A stretch of DNA of 64,000 nucleotides from Vampirovibrionaceae bacterium NZW_1234 (GTDB lineage Bacteria; Cyanobacteriota; Vampirovibrionia; Vampirovibrionales; JAGQHJ01). The stretch's first letter is position 1, and every line of letters starts with the position of its first letter. The notes beneath the pieces are model-generated. The model was not told where the DNA came from. It saw only the letters and a list, made by a program, of their open reading frames with translations, and ran no database searches. The stretch spans positions 1 to 64,000 of the forward strand of contig JBGUGD010000038.1 of the NCBI GenBank assembly GCA_041697335.1, given 5' to 3'. The position numbers were made by a program, and so were the translations under genes. Positions 1,490 through 63,960 of the stretch are shown one piece after another.

Positions 1490-1681
1490 TTAGGCCCGTA
1501 CGTCCAGGCGAAGCTTAGTTTGGGTCGTCGCCGGGAAGCTGGGCAGAAACCATCGATCGTTGAGTTCTTGAAGGAATTTTCCCAGAGACGGCTTTCTTTC
1601 AGAGCGGTTCATCGACGGGTGAGGAAATGATTTTCCGTATCGTACAGTGTCGACGGGATAGCCATAGGGACCAATGTCCAT
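1490..1681 (-). CDS. small hypothetical protein (63 aa) with N-terminal VRYG motif
   Basis: ATG preceded by AAGGAGCTTCGTT (good SD) and a TTGATA-N17-TAGGAT promoter-like element; sits alone in an intergenic gap. Confidence 0.55.
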   Translation of the reverse strand: MDIGPYGYPVDTVRYGKSFPHPSMNRSERKPSLGKFLQELNDRWFLPSFPATTQTKLRLDVRA

Positions 1682-1723
1682 AACGAAGCTCCTTTTAGAG
1701 GGTTTTGTATCAAGTCATGTGAT

Positions 1724-1752
1724 ATCCTATAGCAAAATTTCCCTACTATCAA
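1724..1752 (-). promoter_or_regulatory. putative sigma70-type promoter (TTGATA-N17-TAGGAT) for the 63-aa gene
   Basis: Minus strand reads TTGATA gtagggaaattttgcta TAGGAT about 40 nt upstream of the ATG at 1681. Confidence 0.45.
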
Positions 1753-1865
1753 TAGGTAGGAGGAAATTTTTTTGAACTTTTTTTAAAAAACCTCTTTTTC
1801 TCTCTTACAGCCTGACGAATCGACCCATGAAAGCCTTTAATTCGCCTCTAGAAGAGTACATCTAT

Positions 1866-2855
1866 TTAGGGCAAGCCATGCTTTTCAATAGATTCCAGTG
1901 TGGACAGGATCAGCGCGAGGTCATCCATTTCAGGGACATATTTCATGATGTTCTCCTGATGAAGAACAGAAAGGCGGATGACAAGCGATTGCAGGTGTCG
2001 GATGGGCGCTAGCCCCGGAAACGAAAGAGGCTCAATCTCAGACAGGATACGGGATTGCAAGTGTCGAGTAGGCATGAGCCCTTGAAGCGGGGAAGGGATG
2101 CTGGGAGGGTTCTTCGGTATCAGATTCAAAGGGGCATCGTAGCCGGAATACCGAACATCGAAGGGAATATTCGGGATAAAATGGCAGGGTGTCCCCAACC
2201 CCAGGCAGGGCAGGGCCACATGAACCCGGTTCGTGACGACCATCTTTGCATTGGCATAACGACGCAGGCACTGTTCGGCCAAGGAAATCCGCTCTTTATA
2301 CAGTGACTCTCCACCCTGGGTGTAGGGAACAGAAAGTTGATGAGTCTCAAGGGCTGCAAAGGGAAAAAGTGAGCGAATTTGTTTAAATAAAGCATTTGGA
2401 ACATCTACCAATAACGTTTCTCTTTCCCAAATTTCCAGTTCCGAATTCCGAAAAGCCTCTGCATTCAGGCTCAATGTCAGACAGTACGATAAGTAGGCTT
2501 TTACCCCATTTTCACGAAGAATCTTCATTGTATAAACATCTCGACAACCGATGGGTTCATACTGCTTGAAATAATCAAACGCTTCGGGATGCCTTACTAT
2601 CCAGCCGGGAGCAAGGTGTACTGCGATAAATAAGGGGTGAACAAAGTCTGGAAATGGGATTTTGCCATGGATATACCAGCCATTTGCAATCAGGAATAGG
2701 TTTTCTGCTTCATCGGCCAGACCGCACCTGGCATGGGTATCCCTATCAAACAACGCAACCTGATCCACACCCAGCCCAAGGAGACTGAGCGCCGCAACGG
2801 ACTGGACTTCATCACCCAGATTAGCAGTAGAATAGCAAAAAATAGCAGGTTTCAT
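1866..2855 (-). CDS. polysaccharide pyruvyl transferase family protein
   Basis: Motifs NLGDEVQS, IGCRD and VVTNRVHVALPCLGLGTP; probable start MKPAIF at 2855, just downstream of the oxidoreductase stop. Confidence 0.8.
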   Translation of the reverse strand: MKPAIFCYSTANLGDEVQSVAALSLLGLGVDQVALFDRDTHARCGLADEAENLFLIANGWYIHGKIPFPDFVHPLFIAVHLAPGWIVRHPEAFDYFKQYEPIGCRDVYTMKILRENGVKAYLSYCLTLSLNAEAFRNSELEIWERETLLVDVPNALFKQIRSLFPFAALETHQLSVPYTQGGESLYKERISLAEQCLRRYANAKMVVTNRVHVALPCLGLGTPCHFIPNIPFDVRYSGYDAPLNLIPKNPPSIPSPLQGLMPTRHLQSRILSEIEPLSFPGLAPIRHLQSLVIRLSVLHQENIMKYVPEMDDLALILSTLESIEKHGLP

Positions 2856-2862
2856 ACATTTA

Positions 2863-61543: not shown

Positions 61544-62295
61544 TCAAGCGCCTTGATGTCAAATACGGCTTCCGGCGGCTGCTCCGGCTCCTGCTGAAGG
61601 GTCACTTCCAGGCGAGATGGCTTGGTATCCTGAAACACCTTCCGGAGCGCCTCAAGCGTCCGATCATACAGTGCCTCTAAGCCTTCCGGGGCATCTTCCG
61701 CGTCGTTCACCTCGGCAATCAAGTCATCCTCATCCATCTCAGGGTCCAGATGATGCTCCTTCTGGTAGGCCCTGGCAATGGCCAGCTCTTGTTTCCGGTA
61801 ATCGTCAACCAGGGTTTTGATCTGGGACGCATGATTGCCAAGGGCATCATCGGCAATAAAGACCTGTTCATTATGGACCAACCTCGGATCCGACACCGTT
61901 GCGGGCACTAAATCAGTGCCCGAGGGCTCAAAAATATACATGGCCTCCAGGCTATCCCCATTGATAAAGCGCTTTGTCCTGTCTTTCGGAGGGAGGACGG
62001 TTGCCATACGACAGTAGTCCCTGACCAACAGCGTATCGGGAATCACGGTAAACAGGTCCCGCAACGAATTCCGACGTGCATCTTCACGCAGGTGCGCTTT
62101 CATCAGGATATTAAACGCGCGCCCCACCGGATTGGCATTGGGGGGCTTCACACGTTGCATGCCCCGAACCGTTCCGTTAATCACCAGATCATCCTGAACA
62201 TTGGCCTCGGTCACCAGGTTATGGATTTTATCCTCATACCGAACCCGGTTTACATAATAGATGCCCGAAAAACGGGGTAACTGTGTCTTTATCAT
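61540..62295 (-). CDS. orphan-family protein, tandem paralog 3 (PRFSG leader)
   Basis: Aligns with the two upstream genes (RFSGIY, VRDYC, DD..G.HA, QEPEQPPEA); AGGAG SD. Confidence 0.85.
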   Translation of the reverse strand: MIKTQLPRFSGIYYVNRVRYEDKIHNLVTEANVQDDLVINGTVRGMQRVKPPNANPVGRAFNILMKAHLREDARRNSLRDLFTVIPDTLLVRDYCRMATVLPPKDRTKRFINGDSLEAMYIFEPSGTDLVPATVSDPRLVHNEQVFIADDALGNHASQIKTLVDDYRKQELAIARAYQKEHHLDPEMDEDDLIAEVNDAEDAPEGLEALYDRTLEALRKVFQDTKPSRLEVTLQQEPEQPPEAVFDIKALD

Positions 62296-62351
62296 GGGTG
62301 GAAGCTCCTATGACTCTCAAATGACGGATAACGACCTAAAATAACCACATC

Positions 62352-63113
62352 TTAATCCCGTGTGTGCGGGGTAATCCGGTAGCTGGCTTCCGGCGGCTGC
62401 TCCGGCACCTGACTGACGGTCACATGCATGGTCGCCGACACACTGTCTTGGTAAAGCGCTTTCATCTTTTCCTGGATGACTTCATGCACCAGGGCCGATT
62501 CTCCGGCGAAATCGTCATCTTCGTACAACTCGTCCAACAGCTCATCCAAAGGAATCGCCGGATCCAACTTCCGCTTTTTCCGATACGCGTCTGCCAGCAC
62601 GGCCTCCTGTTCCCGAAACTCTTCCACCAGGGCCGTCATGCGGGTGGCATGGTCCCCCTGTTCATCATCGGTAATGAAGATGTTTTCATCAAAGTAGTGC
62701 TTGGAATGAAAGCGCCCTTTGGGCAAAAGTTCCAAGCCTTTCGGGCTGAAGGAATGCAGGGAATCCATGGCATTTCCTTTGATATAGGTTTTCCGAGGGG
62801 GGTCCTGATTCAACTTCGGCGCCAGCTTACAAAAATCCCGAACCCGCATGACCTCCGGCATCGCCCCAAACATGGCTTGTATCAGATTAAACGACTTATC
62901 CACGATGAGCTGTTCTCTCATCCGATGATGAAACAGCTCACCCACGGGATGCCCCCCTTCAGGGGGGCGTATCTTGAGCATACTGCTCAGCGTACTTTCA
63001 ATAACAGCGTCATCCTGCGACGTATAGGTTTCCTGCACCCGGTGAACCTTGTCGTCGGTAACGACTTTCTGGACCACATAGATCCCGGCAAATCGAAGGG
63101 AAGCAATATTCAT
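62352..63113 (-). CDS. orphan-family protein, tandem paralog 2 (LRFAG leader)
   Basis: RFAGIYVVQKV, VRDFC, QVPEQPPEA; AAGGAG SD. Confidence 0.85.
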   Translation of the reverse strand: MNIASLRFAGIYVVQKVVTDDKVHRVQETYTSQDDAVIESTLSSMLKIRPPEGGHPVGELFHHRMREQLIVDKSFNLIQAMFGAMPEVMRVRDFCKLAPKLNQDPPRKTYIKGNAMDSLHSFSPKGLELLPKGRFHSKHYFDENIFITDDEQGDHATRMTALVEEFREQEAVLADAYRKKRKLDPAIPLDELLDELYEDDDFAGESALVHEVIQEKMKALYQDSVSATMHVTVSQVPEQPPEASYRITPHTRD

Positions 63114-63195
63114 AAGAGTGGAAGCTCCTTAGACAAACAAATGACACACGCTTAAAGATCTGGAAAAGACGTTTCTCCAAAGCCAGGGGATGGCC

Positions 63196-63960
63196 TTACG
63201 CAAGCACCTCCAGTCGATAGGTGGCTTCAGGCGGTTGCTCTGGAGTTTGCTTGACCGTAATGTGGAGTTCTGCCGGTTGAGCCGACTTGAATAACGTTTT
63301 AAGCTTGTCGACGGTCTGCTTGAAAGCCAGTCCAACGTCATTGGTGAAGTCTTCATTGCTTTCATACAGTTCATCGACCAGCTCCGCTAACTTCAAGTCC
63401 GAAGGCAGGCTTAGGCGTTGCCGATAGGTTTCGGCCACATCGGCTTCGTGCTTTCGAAACTCCGAAACCATTGCCTTGACTTGAGTCGCATGGTTGCCTC
63501 TTTCATCATCCGCCAGAAAGACCTGCTCATCGAAGTAGTGCCGGGGATTGAACTGCGATTCGGGAAGCAGACGATACCCCAACGGGCTGAAAGGCCCCAT
63601 GACCTTTTGCTGGTTGGCCGTCACATAGCGAACCCCAGGTTCTTCGGCTTTTAATGCCCGAGTGGAGCGACAGAAGTCACGAACCATCATTGTTTCAGGC
63701 TCTACCCCCAAAGCGTTACGCATAAAGTTTTGGGATTTCTCCGCTTCCAGCTGCTCGCGCATAACCGCGGCAAACTCTTGTCCCATAGTGCTCGACATCG
63801 AAGGCTGAATGGTCAGCAGATCGTGCATGGTGGCCAGAGCCAGCGCATCTTCTTGTGCGGTAAAGGTTTCTTCTGTTTTGTGGATCGTATCTTTGGCAAC
63901 GACTTTCTGGACCACGTAGATGCCGGAAAACCGAAGGGGAGCCAGGGGCAACGTCATCAT
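63196..63960 (-). CDS. orphan-family protein, tandem paralog 1 (LRFSG leader)
   Basis: RFSGIYVVQKV, VRDFC, QTPEQPPEA; TAAGGAG SD before ATG 63960. Confidence 0.85.
   Translation of the reverse strand: MMTLPLAPLRFSGIYVVQKVVAKDTIHKTEETFTAQEDALALATMHDLLTIQPSMSSTMGQEFAAVMREQLEAEKSQNFMRNALGVEPETMMVRDFCRSTRALKAEEPGVRYVTANQQKVMGPFSPLGYRLLPESQFNPRHYFDEQVFLADDERGNHATQVKAMVSEFRKHEADVAETYRQRLSLPSDLKLAELVDELYESNEDFTNDVGLAFKQTVDKLKTLFKSAQPAELHITVKQTPEQPPEATYRLEVLA

Follow-up and report, generated by a model that had tools for sequence, protein, structure and literature searches.

An N-terminal R-F-G leader on about 250 mostly unrelated proteins of a bacterial genome: a candidate targeting presequence

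Why should neighboring genes that encode mostly unrelated proteins begin with the same short peptide motif? The question is raised by a 64,000-nucleotide stretch of a Vampirovibrionaceae genome (C37:1-64000; "the window" throughout). In the window, an earlier note made from the sequence alone had described a shared R-F-(G/S/A)-G leader at the N-termini of about 13 proteins and had read it as a lineage-specific export or targeting signal. Here, we follow the motif through the complete set of contigs of the window's genome (G000; 3.70 Mb, 41 contigs, 50.4% GC, 94.75% complete) and into its relatives. We show that the R-F-G motif is a real N-terminal element under protein-level selection. Its position, composition, cargo, and spread are best accommodated by a targeting or export presequence, a reading to which we give roughly an even chance.

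The R-F-G motif is an N-terminal element under protein-level selection

Two gene sets were used throughout. A hexamer log-odds model returned 2519 open reading frames (ORFs), 2506 of which were usable, and a "longest non-overlapping ORF" caller returned 3027 ORFs of at least 100 amino acids or 3248 of at least 80. Proteins were translated from the most upstream start codon, and leader lengths are therefore upper bounds and approximate. The second caller took the wrong strand for two genes of a tandem trio in the window; these two were treated via their window coordinates.

RFG is strongly concentrated at protein N-termini. Among the 3248 ORFs, it occurs 179 times in residues 1-60, against 41.6 occurrences expected from its rate in protein bodies (binomial p = 6.9e-56). 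Over the same residues, RF[GSA] occurs 320 times (111.9 expected), with RFS at 78 (38.8 expected) and RFA at 63 (31.5 expected), and RFQ occurs 47 times (22.6 expected). Within the first 62 residues, 178 of the 3248 ORFs have an RFG and 308 have any RF[GSA]. In the hexamer set, RFG is the top-ranked N-terminal tripeptide when residues 2-60 are compared with those beyond 100 (n >= 15), with 153 occurrences against 29.2 expected (z = 22.9); PRF, LRF, and VRF come next. Counted per 1000 residues in bins of 10, its density there is 1.04-1.40 in every one of the first five bins and about 0.2 past residue 80.

Permuted and related tripeptides show no such concentration. RL[GSA], FR[GSA], and RF followed by any residue other than G, S, or A are flat along proteins of the hexamer set. 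The N-terminal ratios of the controls RLG (0.98), FRG (1.07), and GFR (1.34) are flat, and neither RYG (0.87) nor KFG (1.14) is enriched. We also reject a looser x-F-G motif in G000, as [^R]FG has a ratio of 1.12 and there is no enrichment without the arginine.

The enrichment is specific to the reading frame. A degenerate DNA pattern for RFG is found 186 times in frame within the first 195 nucleotides of ORFs, compared with 57 and 90 times in the other two frames, and the 195 nucleotides upstream of starts hold no excess of the RFG-coding pattern. Gene bodies have fewer matches in frame than in either of the other frames. The nine bases of RFG are represented by 34 different codon triplet combinations, with third-position use close to that of the genome. 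This in-frame specificity, together with the synonymous codons, leads us to reject both a nucleotide-level signal and mis-called starts. The public gene call for one carrier (P0001) also takes in the leader. The earlier note had allowed that RF[GSA] might be no more frequent at N-termini than internally, or that true start codons might lie downstream of it; the counts instead place the motif in excess at N-termini and within the translated protein.

A position matrix separates carriers from background. The matrix has 19 columns, was iterated and trained on N-termini, and draws part of its score from general N-terminal composition. Scores above 12 are reached by 249 of the 3248 N-termini (about 8% of ORFs) and by 2 of 2237 internal 60-residue windows; lowering the threshold to 10 admits 285 N-termini and 10 internal windows. 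The cores chosen by the matrix are RFG (152), RFS (39), RFA (29), and RFQ (15), followed by rarer variants. Eight residues are required ahead of the motif, and very short leaders such as MQVT-RFS and MIKTQLP-RFS of the window are therefore unscorable.

The leader has a characteristic anatomy. It spans about 5-60 residues and ends S-[L/P/V/I]-R-F-[G/S/A]-[S/A/Q/N]. Around RFG, serine is enriched 4.2-fold at position -2, L, P, V, or I stands at -1, S, A, Q, N, or G follows at +1, and proline is frequent from +8 to +10, the residues after RFG being polar and proline-rich. Acidic residues (D+E) make up 4.5% of the 20 residues before the motif, 10.9% of the 20 after it, and 11.1% of protein bodies, and S+P+T make up 29.9% before the motif versus 17.5% in protein bodies. 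Thus, the motif lies at a sharp compositional boundary. Measured from the most upstream start, the arginine lies at a median of 29 residues (interquartile range 17-40); from the nearest upstream start codon, the median is 9 (interquartile range 5-16). RF[GSA] begins within residues 2-10 in 43 ORFs, and the hexamer set has 41 occurrences in the first 10 residues.

The leader is predicted to be disordered. In an AlphaFold2 model of a leader-bearing PRPP synthetase (28-sequence alignment, mean pLDDT 80), residues 1-41 have a pLDDT below 50 and no secondary structure; the motif occupies residues 26-28, and the first strand starts from residue 52. No Pfam or NCBIfam model extends over the leader in any of the carriers scanned (12 + 91 + 20 against Pfam and 14 against NCBIfam). 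In all but one of them, the strongest match starts after the leader; the exception, a VitK2_biosynth protein matched from residue 12, is probably a false-positive carrier. No description of an R-F-G leader was found in the literature covered, namely open-access papers and bioRxiv.

Carriers, their leaderless copies, and their relatives

The carriers are mostly unrelated to one another, as the earlier note had supposed from the window. After removal of the leader, the 308 RF[GSA] ORFs form 272 BLAST clusters; 247 of these are singletons, and no cluster has more than four members. On this basis, we reject a paralog artefact. Carriers are also poor in hydrophobic segments: a hydrophobic 19-mer is present in 26 of 178 RFG carriers versus 933 of 3070 other proteins, and within the first 100 residues in 16 of 178 versus 749 of 3070, in keeping with the view that the leaders lack a hydrophobic core. 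Such a segment falls within 60 residues past the motif in 15 of the 178. The mature parts of carriers have more K+R (12.6% versus 9.8%) and half as much cysteine. GC and GC3 equal those of the rest of the genome, which leads us to reject recent horizontal transfer of the carriers. They occur throughout the contigs and are mildly clustered (47 adjacent pairs, 28.8 expected), and the densest patch lies at C25:30-60 kb.

Most sampled carriers belong to no known family. Pfam scans covered 12 of the window proteins claimed by the earlier note (all but purA) and 111 carriers elsewhere, of 249 genome-wide; 91 of the 111 were high-scoring carriers picked from genome clusters and the densest stretches and 20 were random picks from the rest. 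No Pfam family (E <= 1e-4) was assigned to 58 of these 91 or to 15 of the 20. Carriers with a family include proteases and chaperones (FtsH-, Lon-, ClpB-, and ClpP-like proteins, an M48 peptidase, a subtilase with HEAT repeats, and a calpain-like protease) and sugar enzymes (MalQ of GH77 and an alpha-amylase-family enzyme). Enzymes of nucleotide and NAD metabolism are represented by PRPP synthetase, adenosine and cytidine deaminases, a uridine-kinase-like protein, NAPRTase, isochorismatase, and NUDIX. Others are RtcB, Ppx, an ADP-ribosylglycohydrolase, an EEP phosphatase, a YegS-type lipid kinase, and a PlsC-type acyltransferase, along with alpha/beta hydrolases, methyltransferases, and TPR proteins.

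Carriers have fewer recognizable relatives than other proteins. Homologs were found for 16 of 249 carriers versus 431 of 2907 other proteins in sampled relatives of the same family, for 22 versus 692 in sampled sister families, and for 2 versus 181 in samples from outside the order. The EEP carrier retrieved only itself from 5.8 billion proteins in a word-indexed search, and a search of the ESM Atlas for relatives of orphan carriers gave no usable match.

Some carriers belong to protease groups with further members in the genome. Three FtsH-like paralogs are without the HEXXH zinc site; two of them (g2627 and g1025) carry RFG leaders, and the third (g3029) has a MAFG variant. A further leader-bearing FtsH-like AAA protein (C25:44792-47755) is encoded 2 kb from a leader-bearing malate/lactate dehydrogenase (MDH; C25:49661-50725). 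This neighborhood recalls the chloroplast complex of FtsHi, FtsH12, and NAD-MDH (PMC8042743), a likeness that may be coincidence. The genome also has an unusually large set of M16 (pitrilysin/MPP-type) peptidases, with eight domain hits in about six proteins (C7, C8, C25, and C28), among them an adjacent alpha/beta-like pair on C28. A 1088-residue M16 protein in the C25 hot spot bears a leader of its own, ...SATV-RFG-QDP.

Many carriers have a second, leaderless copy in the same genome. A paralog without the plain RF[GSA] pattern (E < 1e-10) exists for 74 of the 308 RF[GSA] ORFs. A leaderless copy is present for MDH, isocitrate dehydrogenase (IDH), PRPP synthetase, guanylate kinase, NadD, RtcB, MalQ, YegS, and cytidine deaminase, and likewise for ClpB/C, Lon, and FtsH. 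Similarity between the two copies (25-45% identity) starts shortly past the motif in the nine enzymes from MDH to cytidine deaminase, among others. The leader is an add-on to divergent duplicated enzymes.

The two copies of PRPP synthetase differ in their relatives. Among 5.8 billion proteins, the leader-bearing enzyme has one close relative, at 68% identity, and the others reach at most 44%. That relative reads ...HPLFGAAQ where the G000 copy reads ...LNLRFGDAK. The leaderless enzyme is 67-75% identical to copies from metagenome-assembled genomes (MAGs) labelled as Melainabacteria or Gastranaerophilales. Each of the five relatives searched has a single PRPP synthetase, and the leader-bearing one is missing from all five. 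MAGs with the same two labels are also the nearest matches of purA, which reaches only 53% in named genomes, to Gastranaerophilales-type and many other MAGs. These affinities are indirect evidence on the taxonomy of G000.

In the SIMPL (DUF541) family, the leader takes the place of a signal peptide. All eight other copies, comprising the second copy in G000 and the seven in G004, G005, G006, and G008, have a hydrophobic N-terminal signal directly ahead of the domain. The leader-bearing copy (C23:34460-35242) reads MNLVSLRPAISPQAKKPILNSSQS-RFS-GQKPSVLTVQGVG and has no hydrophobic core. With RFS where the others have a hydrophobic signal, the leader fills the signal-peptide slot.

The element is lineage-specific. 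Relatives were sampled as stretches of 70-400 kb rather than whole genomes, with the same ORF caller and matrix. In the same family, scores above 12 are reached by 5 of 67 N-termini in G001, 7 of 114 in G003, and 6 of 253 in G004. In sister families, the counts are 5 of 183 (G023), 6 of 183 (G008), 5 of 364 (G006), and 0 of 339 (G005). Internal windows above this score number 1 of 42 in G001 and 2 of 159 in G004, and none in the other five. G004 has 12 RFG at N-termini and 11 in protein bodies, a ratio of 3.5. Four genomes from other families of the class, sampled at 100 kb each, had no N-terminus above 12 (0/75, 0/85, 0/117, and 0/91). Within the order, the motif load is 0-8% of genes.

Comparable N-termini of ortholog pairs within the order often retain the motif between diverged flanks (the EEP protein, g1294, g386, g2356, and g2419); in some pairs it has been lost. 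A separate kind of N-terminal tail was seen in the sister-family genome G006 (loci L042-L061), where many housekeeping proteins start with Pro/Thr/Ser-rich tails that do not contain RFG. The tripeptide SPP occurs 19 times at the N-termini there, against 2.2 expected.

What the leader may do

The element belongs to none of the Sec, Tat, prepilin, Prp-type, type IV, type VI, or contractile-system markers. A Sec (type I) signal peptide, which has a hydrophobic h-region of some 7-15 residues just behind a basic n-region, is rejected on the small share of carriers (15/178) with a hydrophobic 19-mer past the motif. Tat signals (S/T-R-R-x-F-L-K) also combine conserved Ser, Arg, and Phe in an N-terminal signal, but the leader has a single arginine with phenylalanine directly adjacent and its h-region is mostly absent, and Tat is rejected on these differences. 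Prepilin (class III) signals are cleaved at G|F and continue into a hydrophobic helix with glutamate at +5. The order R-F-G, not G-F, and the polar, proline-rich residues past the motif exclude this class. Type VI effector markers (MIX, FIX, RIX), type IV effector signals, and cargo signals of contractile injection systems are each rejected because the genome search gave no match to TssC, to VirB4 (VirD4 lay outside that search), or to a sheath gene, respectively.

Two cytoplasmic or ABC-dependent leader types also bear comparison. Prp is a cytoplasmic protease that removes a short extension ending in Phe-small-small from ribosomal protein L27 and from capsid proteins of phage 80-alpha. The leader is likewise short, N-terminal, and terminated by Phe and two small residues, but the Prp system serves a handful of proteins and not about 250. 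Prp-type processing is rejected here, with no match to Peptidase_Prp (PF04327) in G000. Double-glycine (PCAT) leaders have about 15-30 residues with conserved hydrophobic positions, end in GG, GA, or GS, and are paired with a C39 peptidase ABC exporter; the short leaders of the window, at 4-9 residues, fall below that length.

By analogy, the element resembles a type III signal or a PEXEL/RxLR motif in its logic and an organelle presequence in its make-up. Type III secretion signals are N-terminal, disordered, Ser/Pro-rich, and acid-poor, and they are not known to have a fixed sequence motif. The leader, too, forms a predicted disordered, Ser/Pro-rich, acid-poor N-terminus without a hydrophobic core. 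As in Pseudomonas syringae effectors and Chlamydia, such a signal sits on many unrelated, fast-evolving proteins, and G000 encodes a flagellar-type export gate. Unlike type III signals, the leader has a near-invariant R-F-G core whose distance from the start varies; no genes of an injectisome were recognized in G000, and the apparatus does not co-vary with the motif.

The PEXEL/HT (RxLxE/Q/D) motif of Plasmodium and the RxLR motif of oomycetes are short N-terminal motifs on hundreds of unrelated lineage-specific proteins. They cover several percent of the proteome, mark delivery into the host cell, and double as a processing site. The R-F-G leader is similarly a short N-terminal motif common to hundreds of unrelated lineage-specific proteins, which is an analogy of logic and not of membership. 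The eukaryotic motifs differ in sequence and stand downstream of an endoplasmic reticulum signal peptide, which the carriers do not have.

Mitochondrial presequences and plastid transit peptides are variable in length, acid-free, and rich in hydroxylated residues, with an arginine and an aromatic residue near the boundary. The leader shares this make-up and likewise stands directly ahead of the mature domain in second copies of MDH, IDH, FtsH, Clp, Lon, and M16 proteins. Although M16 peptidases are plentiful in G000 (8 domain hits), the R-2 and R-3 sites of MPP have a residue between arginine and the aromatic, whereas R and F are adjacent in the leader. The resemblance to the plastid FGLK element is speculative, as the order is R-F-G rather than F-G-L-K. 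Furthermore, G000 is a bacterial genome with no known organelle, and no translocon like TOC/TIC or TOM/TIM was found, with no search aimed at one.

We consider it about an even bet that the leader serves as a targeting or export presequence peculiar to this lineage, and perhaps as a site of processing too. Roughly 250 proteins are made with an acid-poor, Ser/Pro/Thr-rich leader; R-F-G would mark the end of a cleavable-looking presequence, and the folded protein begins some 10-20 residues past the leader's end. A receptor would recognize the short motif in the unfolded N-terminus and pass the protein on for transfer out of the producing cell's cytoplasm by a route independent of Sec; the same motif could possibly be cut. 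The most likely destination would be a space that contains ATP, for instance host or prey cytoplasm. A targeting presequence offers the best fit to an N-terminal, frame-specific position, a compositional boundary, predicted disorder, and the lack of hydrophobic cores. It also best fits an orphan-rich, fast-turnover cargo, the addition of the leader to duplicated enzymes, and the replacement of a signal peptide in SIMPL. Cargo with ATP-dependent proteases and chaperones, alongside duplicated nucleotide, NAD, and glycogen enzymes, suggests an ATP-containing destination and not simple secretion to the medium. The reading of the earlier note is supported in part. The element is real, lineage-specific, and N-terminal, with a make-up and placement that suit a signal or processing site; its ATP-using cargo fits simple secretion poorly.

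Several observations weigh against this reading. What the data establish is the motif with its placement and reading frame, protein-level selection, the composition of the leader, the kinds of cargo, and the phyletic spread; from these we infer that the motif is recognized, that carriers are exported and cleaved, and where they go. The FtsH-like membrane AAA carriers and the Lon-, ClpB-, and ClpP-like carriers are odd proteins to export and would suit the producer's own cytoplasm equally. No secretion apparatus tracks the motif, a co-occurrence that the earlier note had proposed as a test. The search of G000, a genome 94.75% complete, gave no match to VirB4 (PF03135), to VipB/TssC (PF05943), or to Phage_sheath_1 (PF04984). 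It has only one SecA, and a second SecA is therefore rejected as the route. Both FlhA copies occur also in the motif-free G005 (0/339) and in families outside the order (0/75 to 0/117). Among high-scoring sites, a few are conserved internal enzyme motifs, for example in chorismate synthase and UDG, and the gene calls behind the leader lengths come from crude ORF finders. In some orthologs the arginine is replaced (LFG, AFG), so the recognized core would be looser than RFG.

A serious rival, though in our view an unlikely one, is that the leader works wholly within the cytoplasm as a pro-peptide or degron. It would then be a site for an endoprotease or adaptor that sets the activity or half-life of a stage-specific set of proteins, with no export; cleavage before phenylalanine, for instance, would expose an N-degron. 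ATP-dependent proteases, chaperones, and ordinary cytoplasmic enzymes among the carriers agree with this, as do the eight M16 domain hits and the fact that no apparatus co-varies with the motif. The acid-free-then-normal asymmetry suits any processing boundary. Left unexplained are the carriers' scarcity of membrane segments and cysteine, the signal-peptide replacement in SIMPL, and the roughly two thirds of sampled carriers that are fast-evolving orphans. The variable N-terminal distance (median 29, 17-40) speaks against direct recognition of the N-terminal residue, and a Prp-type leader protease was not found in G000.

A bolder form of delivery, which we also hold to be improbable, would resemble import into organelles. 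An R-F-G presequence would send hundreds of proteins into a second ATP-containing compartment via an undescribed apparatus. The compartment would most plausibly be the host or prey cytoplasm, or else an unrecognized internal compartment. The cargo would include a full maintenance kit of FtsH-like pseudo-proteases, Lon, ClpB, ClpP, and M16 proteins together with second copies of nucleotide, NAD, tricarboxylic acid cycle, and glycogen enzymes. If this were true, the leader would be the first bacterial counterpart of PEXEL/RxLR motifs or organelle transit peptides.

As a sub-case of the targeting and export reading, the leader might be a substrate signal for flagellar-type type III export, perhaps through a second FlhA; we regard this as rather doubtful. 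G000 encodes fliPQR-flhB-flhA on C2 (flhA at C2:99137-101233) and a second full-length FlhA (C32:11501-13612) between fliH and fliI, in a cluster with rod genes and fliF. This export gate is the sole one-step system found in G000. The genome also has a Tad pilus cluster and a cluster with a secretin, PilB/GspE, and PilC/GspF, and its two secretins sit in the Tad and type II/type IV-pilus clusters, not in an injectisome. The leader's make-up resembles that of known type III signals. PMC4829429 and PMC9251005 describe export of glycogen enzymes and a phosphoglucomutase by type III secretion in Chlamydia, a suggestive parallel to the leader-bearing cargo.

The distribution of FlhA is difficult to reconcile with such a role. 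FHIPEP has two matches in each of 31 genomes of the order except G029, which has one, and several other families of the class also have two. Since G005 and the sampled families from outside the order have copies but no motif, there is no phyletic link between the two, and we reject the second FlhA as a specific receptor. The rod proteins of the C32 cluster are not among the flagged carriers, and type III signals are not known to have a fixed motif. Some genomes instead have a protein consisting of the C-terminal half of FlhA only.

Sorting within the producer is also a serious rival but seems to us quite improbable; the leader would direct proteins to a pole, to a membrane domain, or to some compartment inside the cell with its own proteases, chaperones, and metabolic enzymes. 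Duplicate housekeeping enzymes with the leader on one copy only, leaders on FtsH-like proteins without HEXXH, and a make-up like that of organelle presequences would agree with it. No compartment is known in the lineage, and neither shell nor translocon genes turned up, with no search aimed at microcompartment or encapsulin families. The rapid turnover of the repertoire between genera suits effectors better; the leader-bearing PRPP synthetase, for one, is missing from 5/5 relatives.

It is very improbable that the motif has no function and that paralogy, composition, a nucleotide-level signal, or mis-called starts produced the pattern. The gene calls are crude, about 42 of the 179 plain RFG are expected by chance, and a single paralog family supplies three of the examples in the window, but the enrichment is frame-specific with synonymously varied codons, the control tripeptides are flat, 247 of 272 clusters are singletons, the matrix finds 249/3248 N-termini against 2/2237 internal windows, orthologs keep the motif, and the public call for P0001 includes the leader.

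If the leader is an address label, as the targeting reading holds, a simple sequence rule would single out all that is delivered by an uncultured lineage with kinship to the ancestors of plastids, about 250 proteins in G000 and more in its relatives. The mostly familyless carriers would be a ready list of candidate effectors and enzymes acting outside the producer cell. Bacterial one-step secretion signals are hard to recognize by sequence. A fixed short motif would be an exception that is easily tested, and could serve as a handle for finding the receptor or apparatus. The leader-bearing FtsH-like, Clp, Lon, M16, MDH, and starch/glycogen enzymes echo the organelle-imported proteins of eukaryotes, and the lineage is possibly a natural experiment in protein-targeting evolution.

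Carriers and neighboring genes in the window

The window is rich in carriers. Ten of its approximately 48 genes have the element, compared with about 8% genome-wide, and three of the ten are tandem paralogs. All of the N-termini that the earlier note had quoted for its 13 or so proteins are present; ten are solid examples and three (RYG, KFA, and the RFQ of purA) are weak. Among the effector-like domains that it had named, FHA is confirmed, the P-loop is weak and under the family cut-off, and the calpain-like protease is inferred only via a paralog. EEP, Sel1, and GNAT were not found in the 12 claimed window proteins scanned (all but purA; E <= 1e-3).

The first carriers lie on the reverse strand. 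An 854-residue orphan beginning MDIVRFSG (7569..10133, -; motif at nt 10113-10121; matrix score 14.0) has no Pfam or NCBIfam family. It is followed by a 299-residue protein with the leader ...AKALPKP-RFG-ADLQ (12683..13582, -; motif at nt 13514-13522; score 16.0), in which a weak P-loop is seen, with Pfam matches to ABC_tran and AAA_22 under their cut-offs. The 497-residue FHA-domain protein (16757..18250, -; score 16.8) carries the motif twice, as RFA (nt 18224-18232) and as PRFGAD (nt 18173-18181), and no homolog was found for it among 30 relatives.

Three further carriers score higher. A 223-residue orphan with the leader ...LYPSAPV-RFG-QENQ (35352..36023, +; motif at nt 35421-35429; score 18.4) has no Pfam family. 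The 311-residue protein with ...GLQTSV-RFG-LTSPP (49265..50200, -; motif at nt 50105-50113; score 19.4) shares a BLAST cluster with a calpain-like (Peptidase_C2) leader protein. The window maximum, 22.3, belongs to a 345-residue orphan with ...MNKDSV-RFG-SDENL (56104..57141, -; motif at nt 57031-57039), which has a hydrophobic segment about 25 residues past the motif.

The remaining solid examples have short leaders. A 172-residue orphan reads MQVT-RFS-GTYRIQL (61025..61543, +; motif at nt 61037-61045) and has no Pfam family. Next to it is the tandem trio on the reverse strand, whose members read MIKTQLP-RFS-GIYYV (61540..62295; 251 residues; motif at nt 62266-62274), MNIASL-RFA-GIYVV (62352..63113; 253 residues; motif at nt 63087-63095), and MMTLPLAPL-RFS-GIYVV (63196..63960; 254 residues; motif at nt 63925-63933). 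The first is 34% and the third 44% identical to the middle member. A search of 1.84 billion representative proteins with the trio (61540-63960) returned only its own three copies and one borderline match, of 33 residues (E = 5.2e-4), to a 4417-residue protein.

Three claimed examples are weaker. The KFA at nt 12215-12223 of a 124-residue ORF (12191..12565, +) has a matrix score of -3.2, and KFG is unenriched at N-termini; the KFA is probably not the element. In purA (59314..60729, +), MKP-RFQ-GN at nt 59380-59388 scores only 6.0, and this uncertain case is probably chance, with RFQ itself mildly enriched genome-wide. We reject the RYG of a 63-residue ORF (1490..1681, -) as an example, since RYG is unenriched (ratio 0.87) and the hexamer model makes no call there.

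Other genes of the window are of separate interest. An HflX-type GTPase of 616 residues (31077-32927, +) has its known domains from residue 243, preceded by about 240 N-terminal residues that match no family. An 860-residue protein (20670-23252, -) has long coiled-coil-like matches (Filament, FBF1, and Apolipoprotein), all under the Pfam cut-offs. A two-partner secretion pair is encoded at 39381-48772 (-), consisting of a 2470-residue TpsA with a TPS domain and a 599-residue TpsB of the ShlB/FhaC type with POTRA domains.

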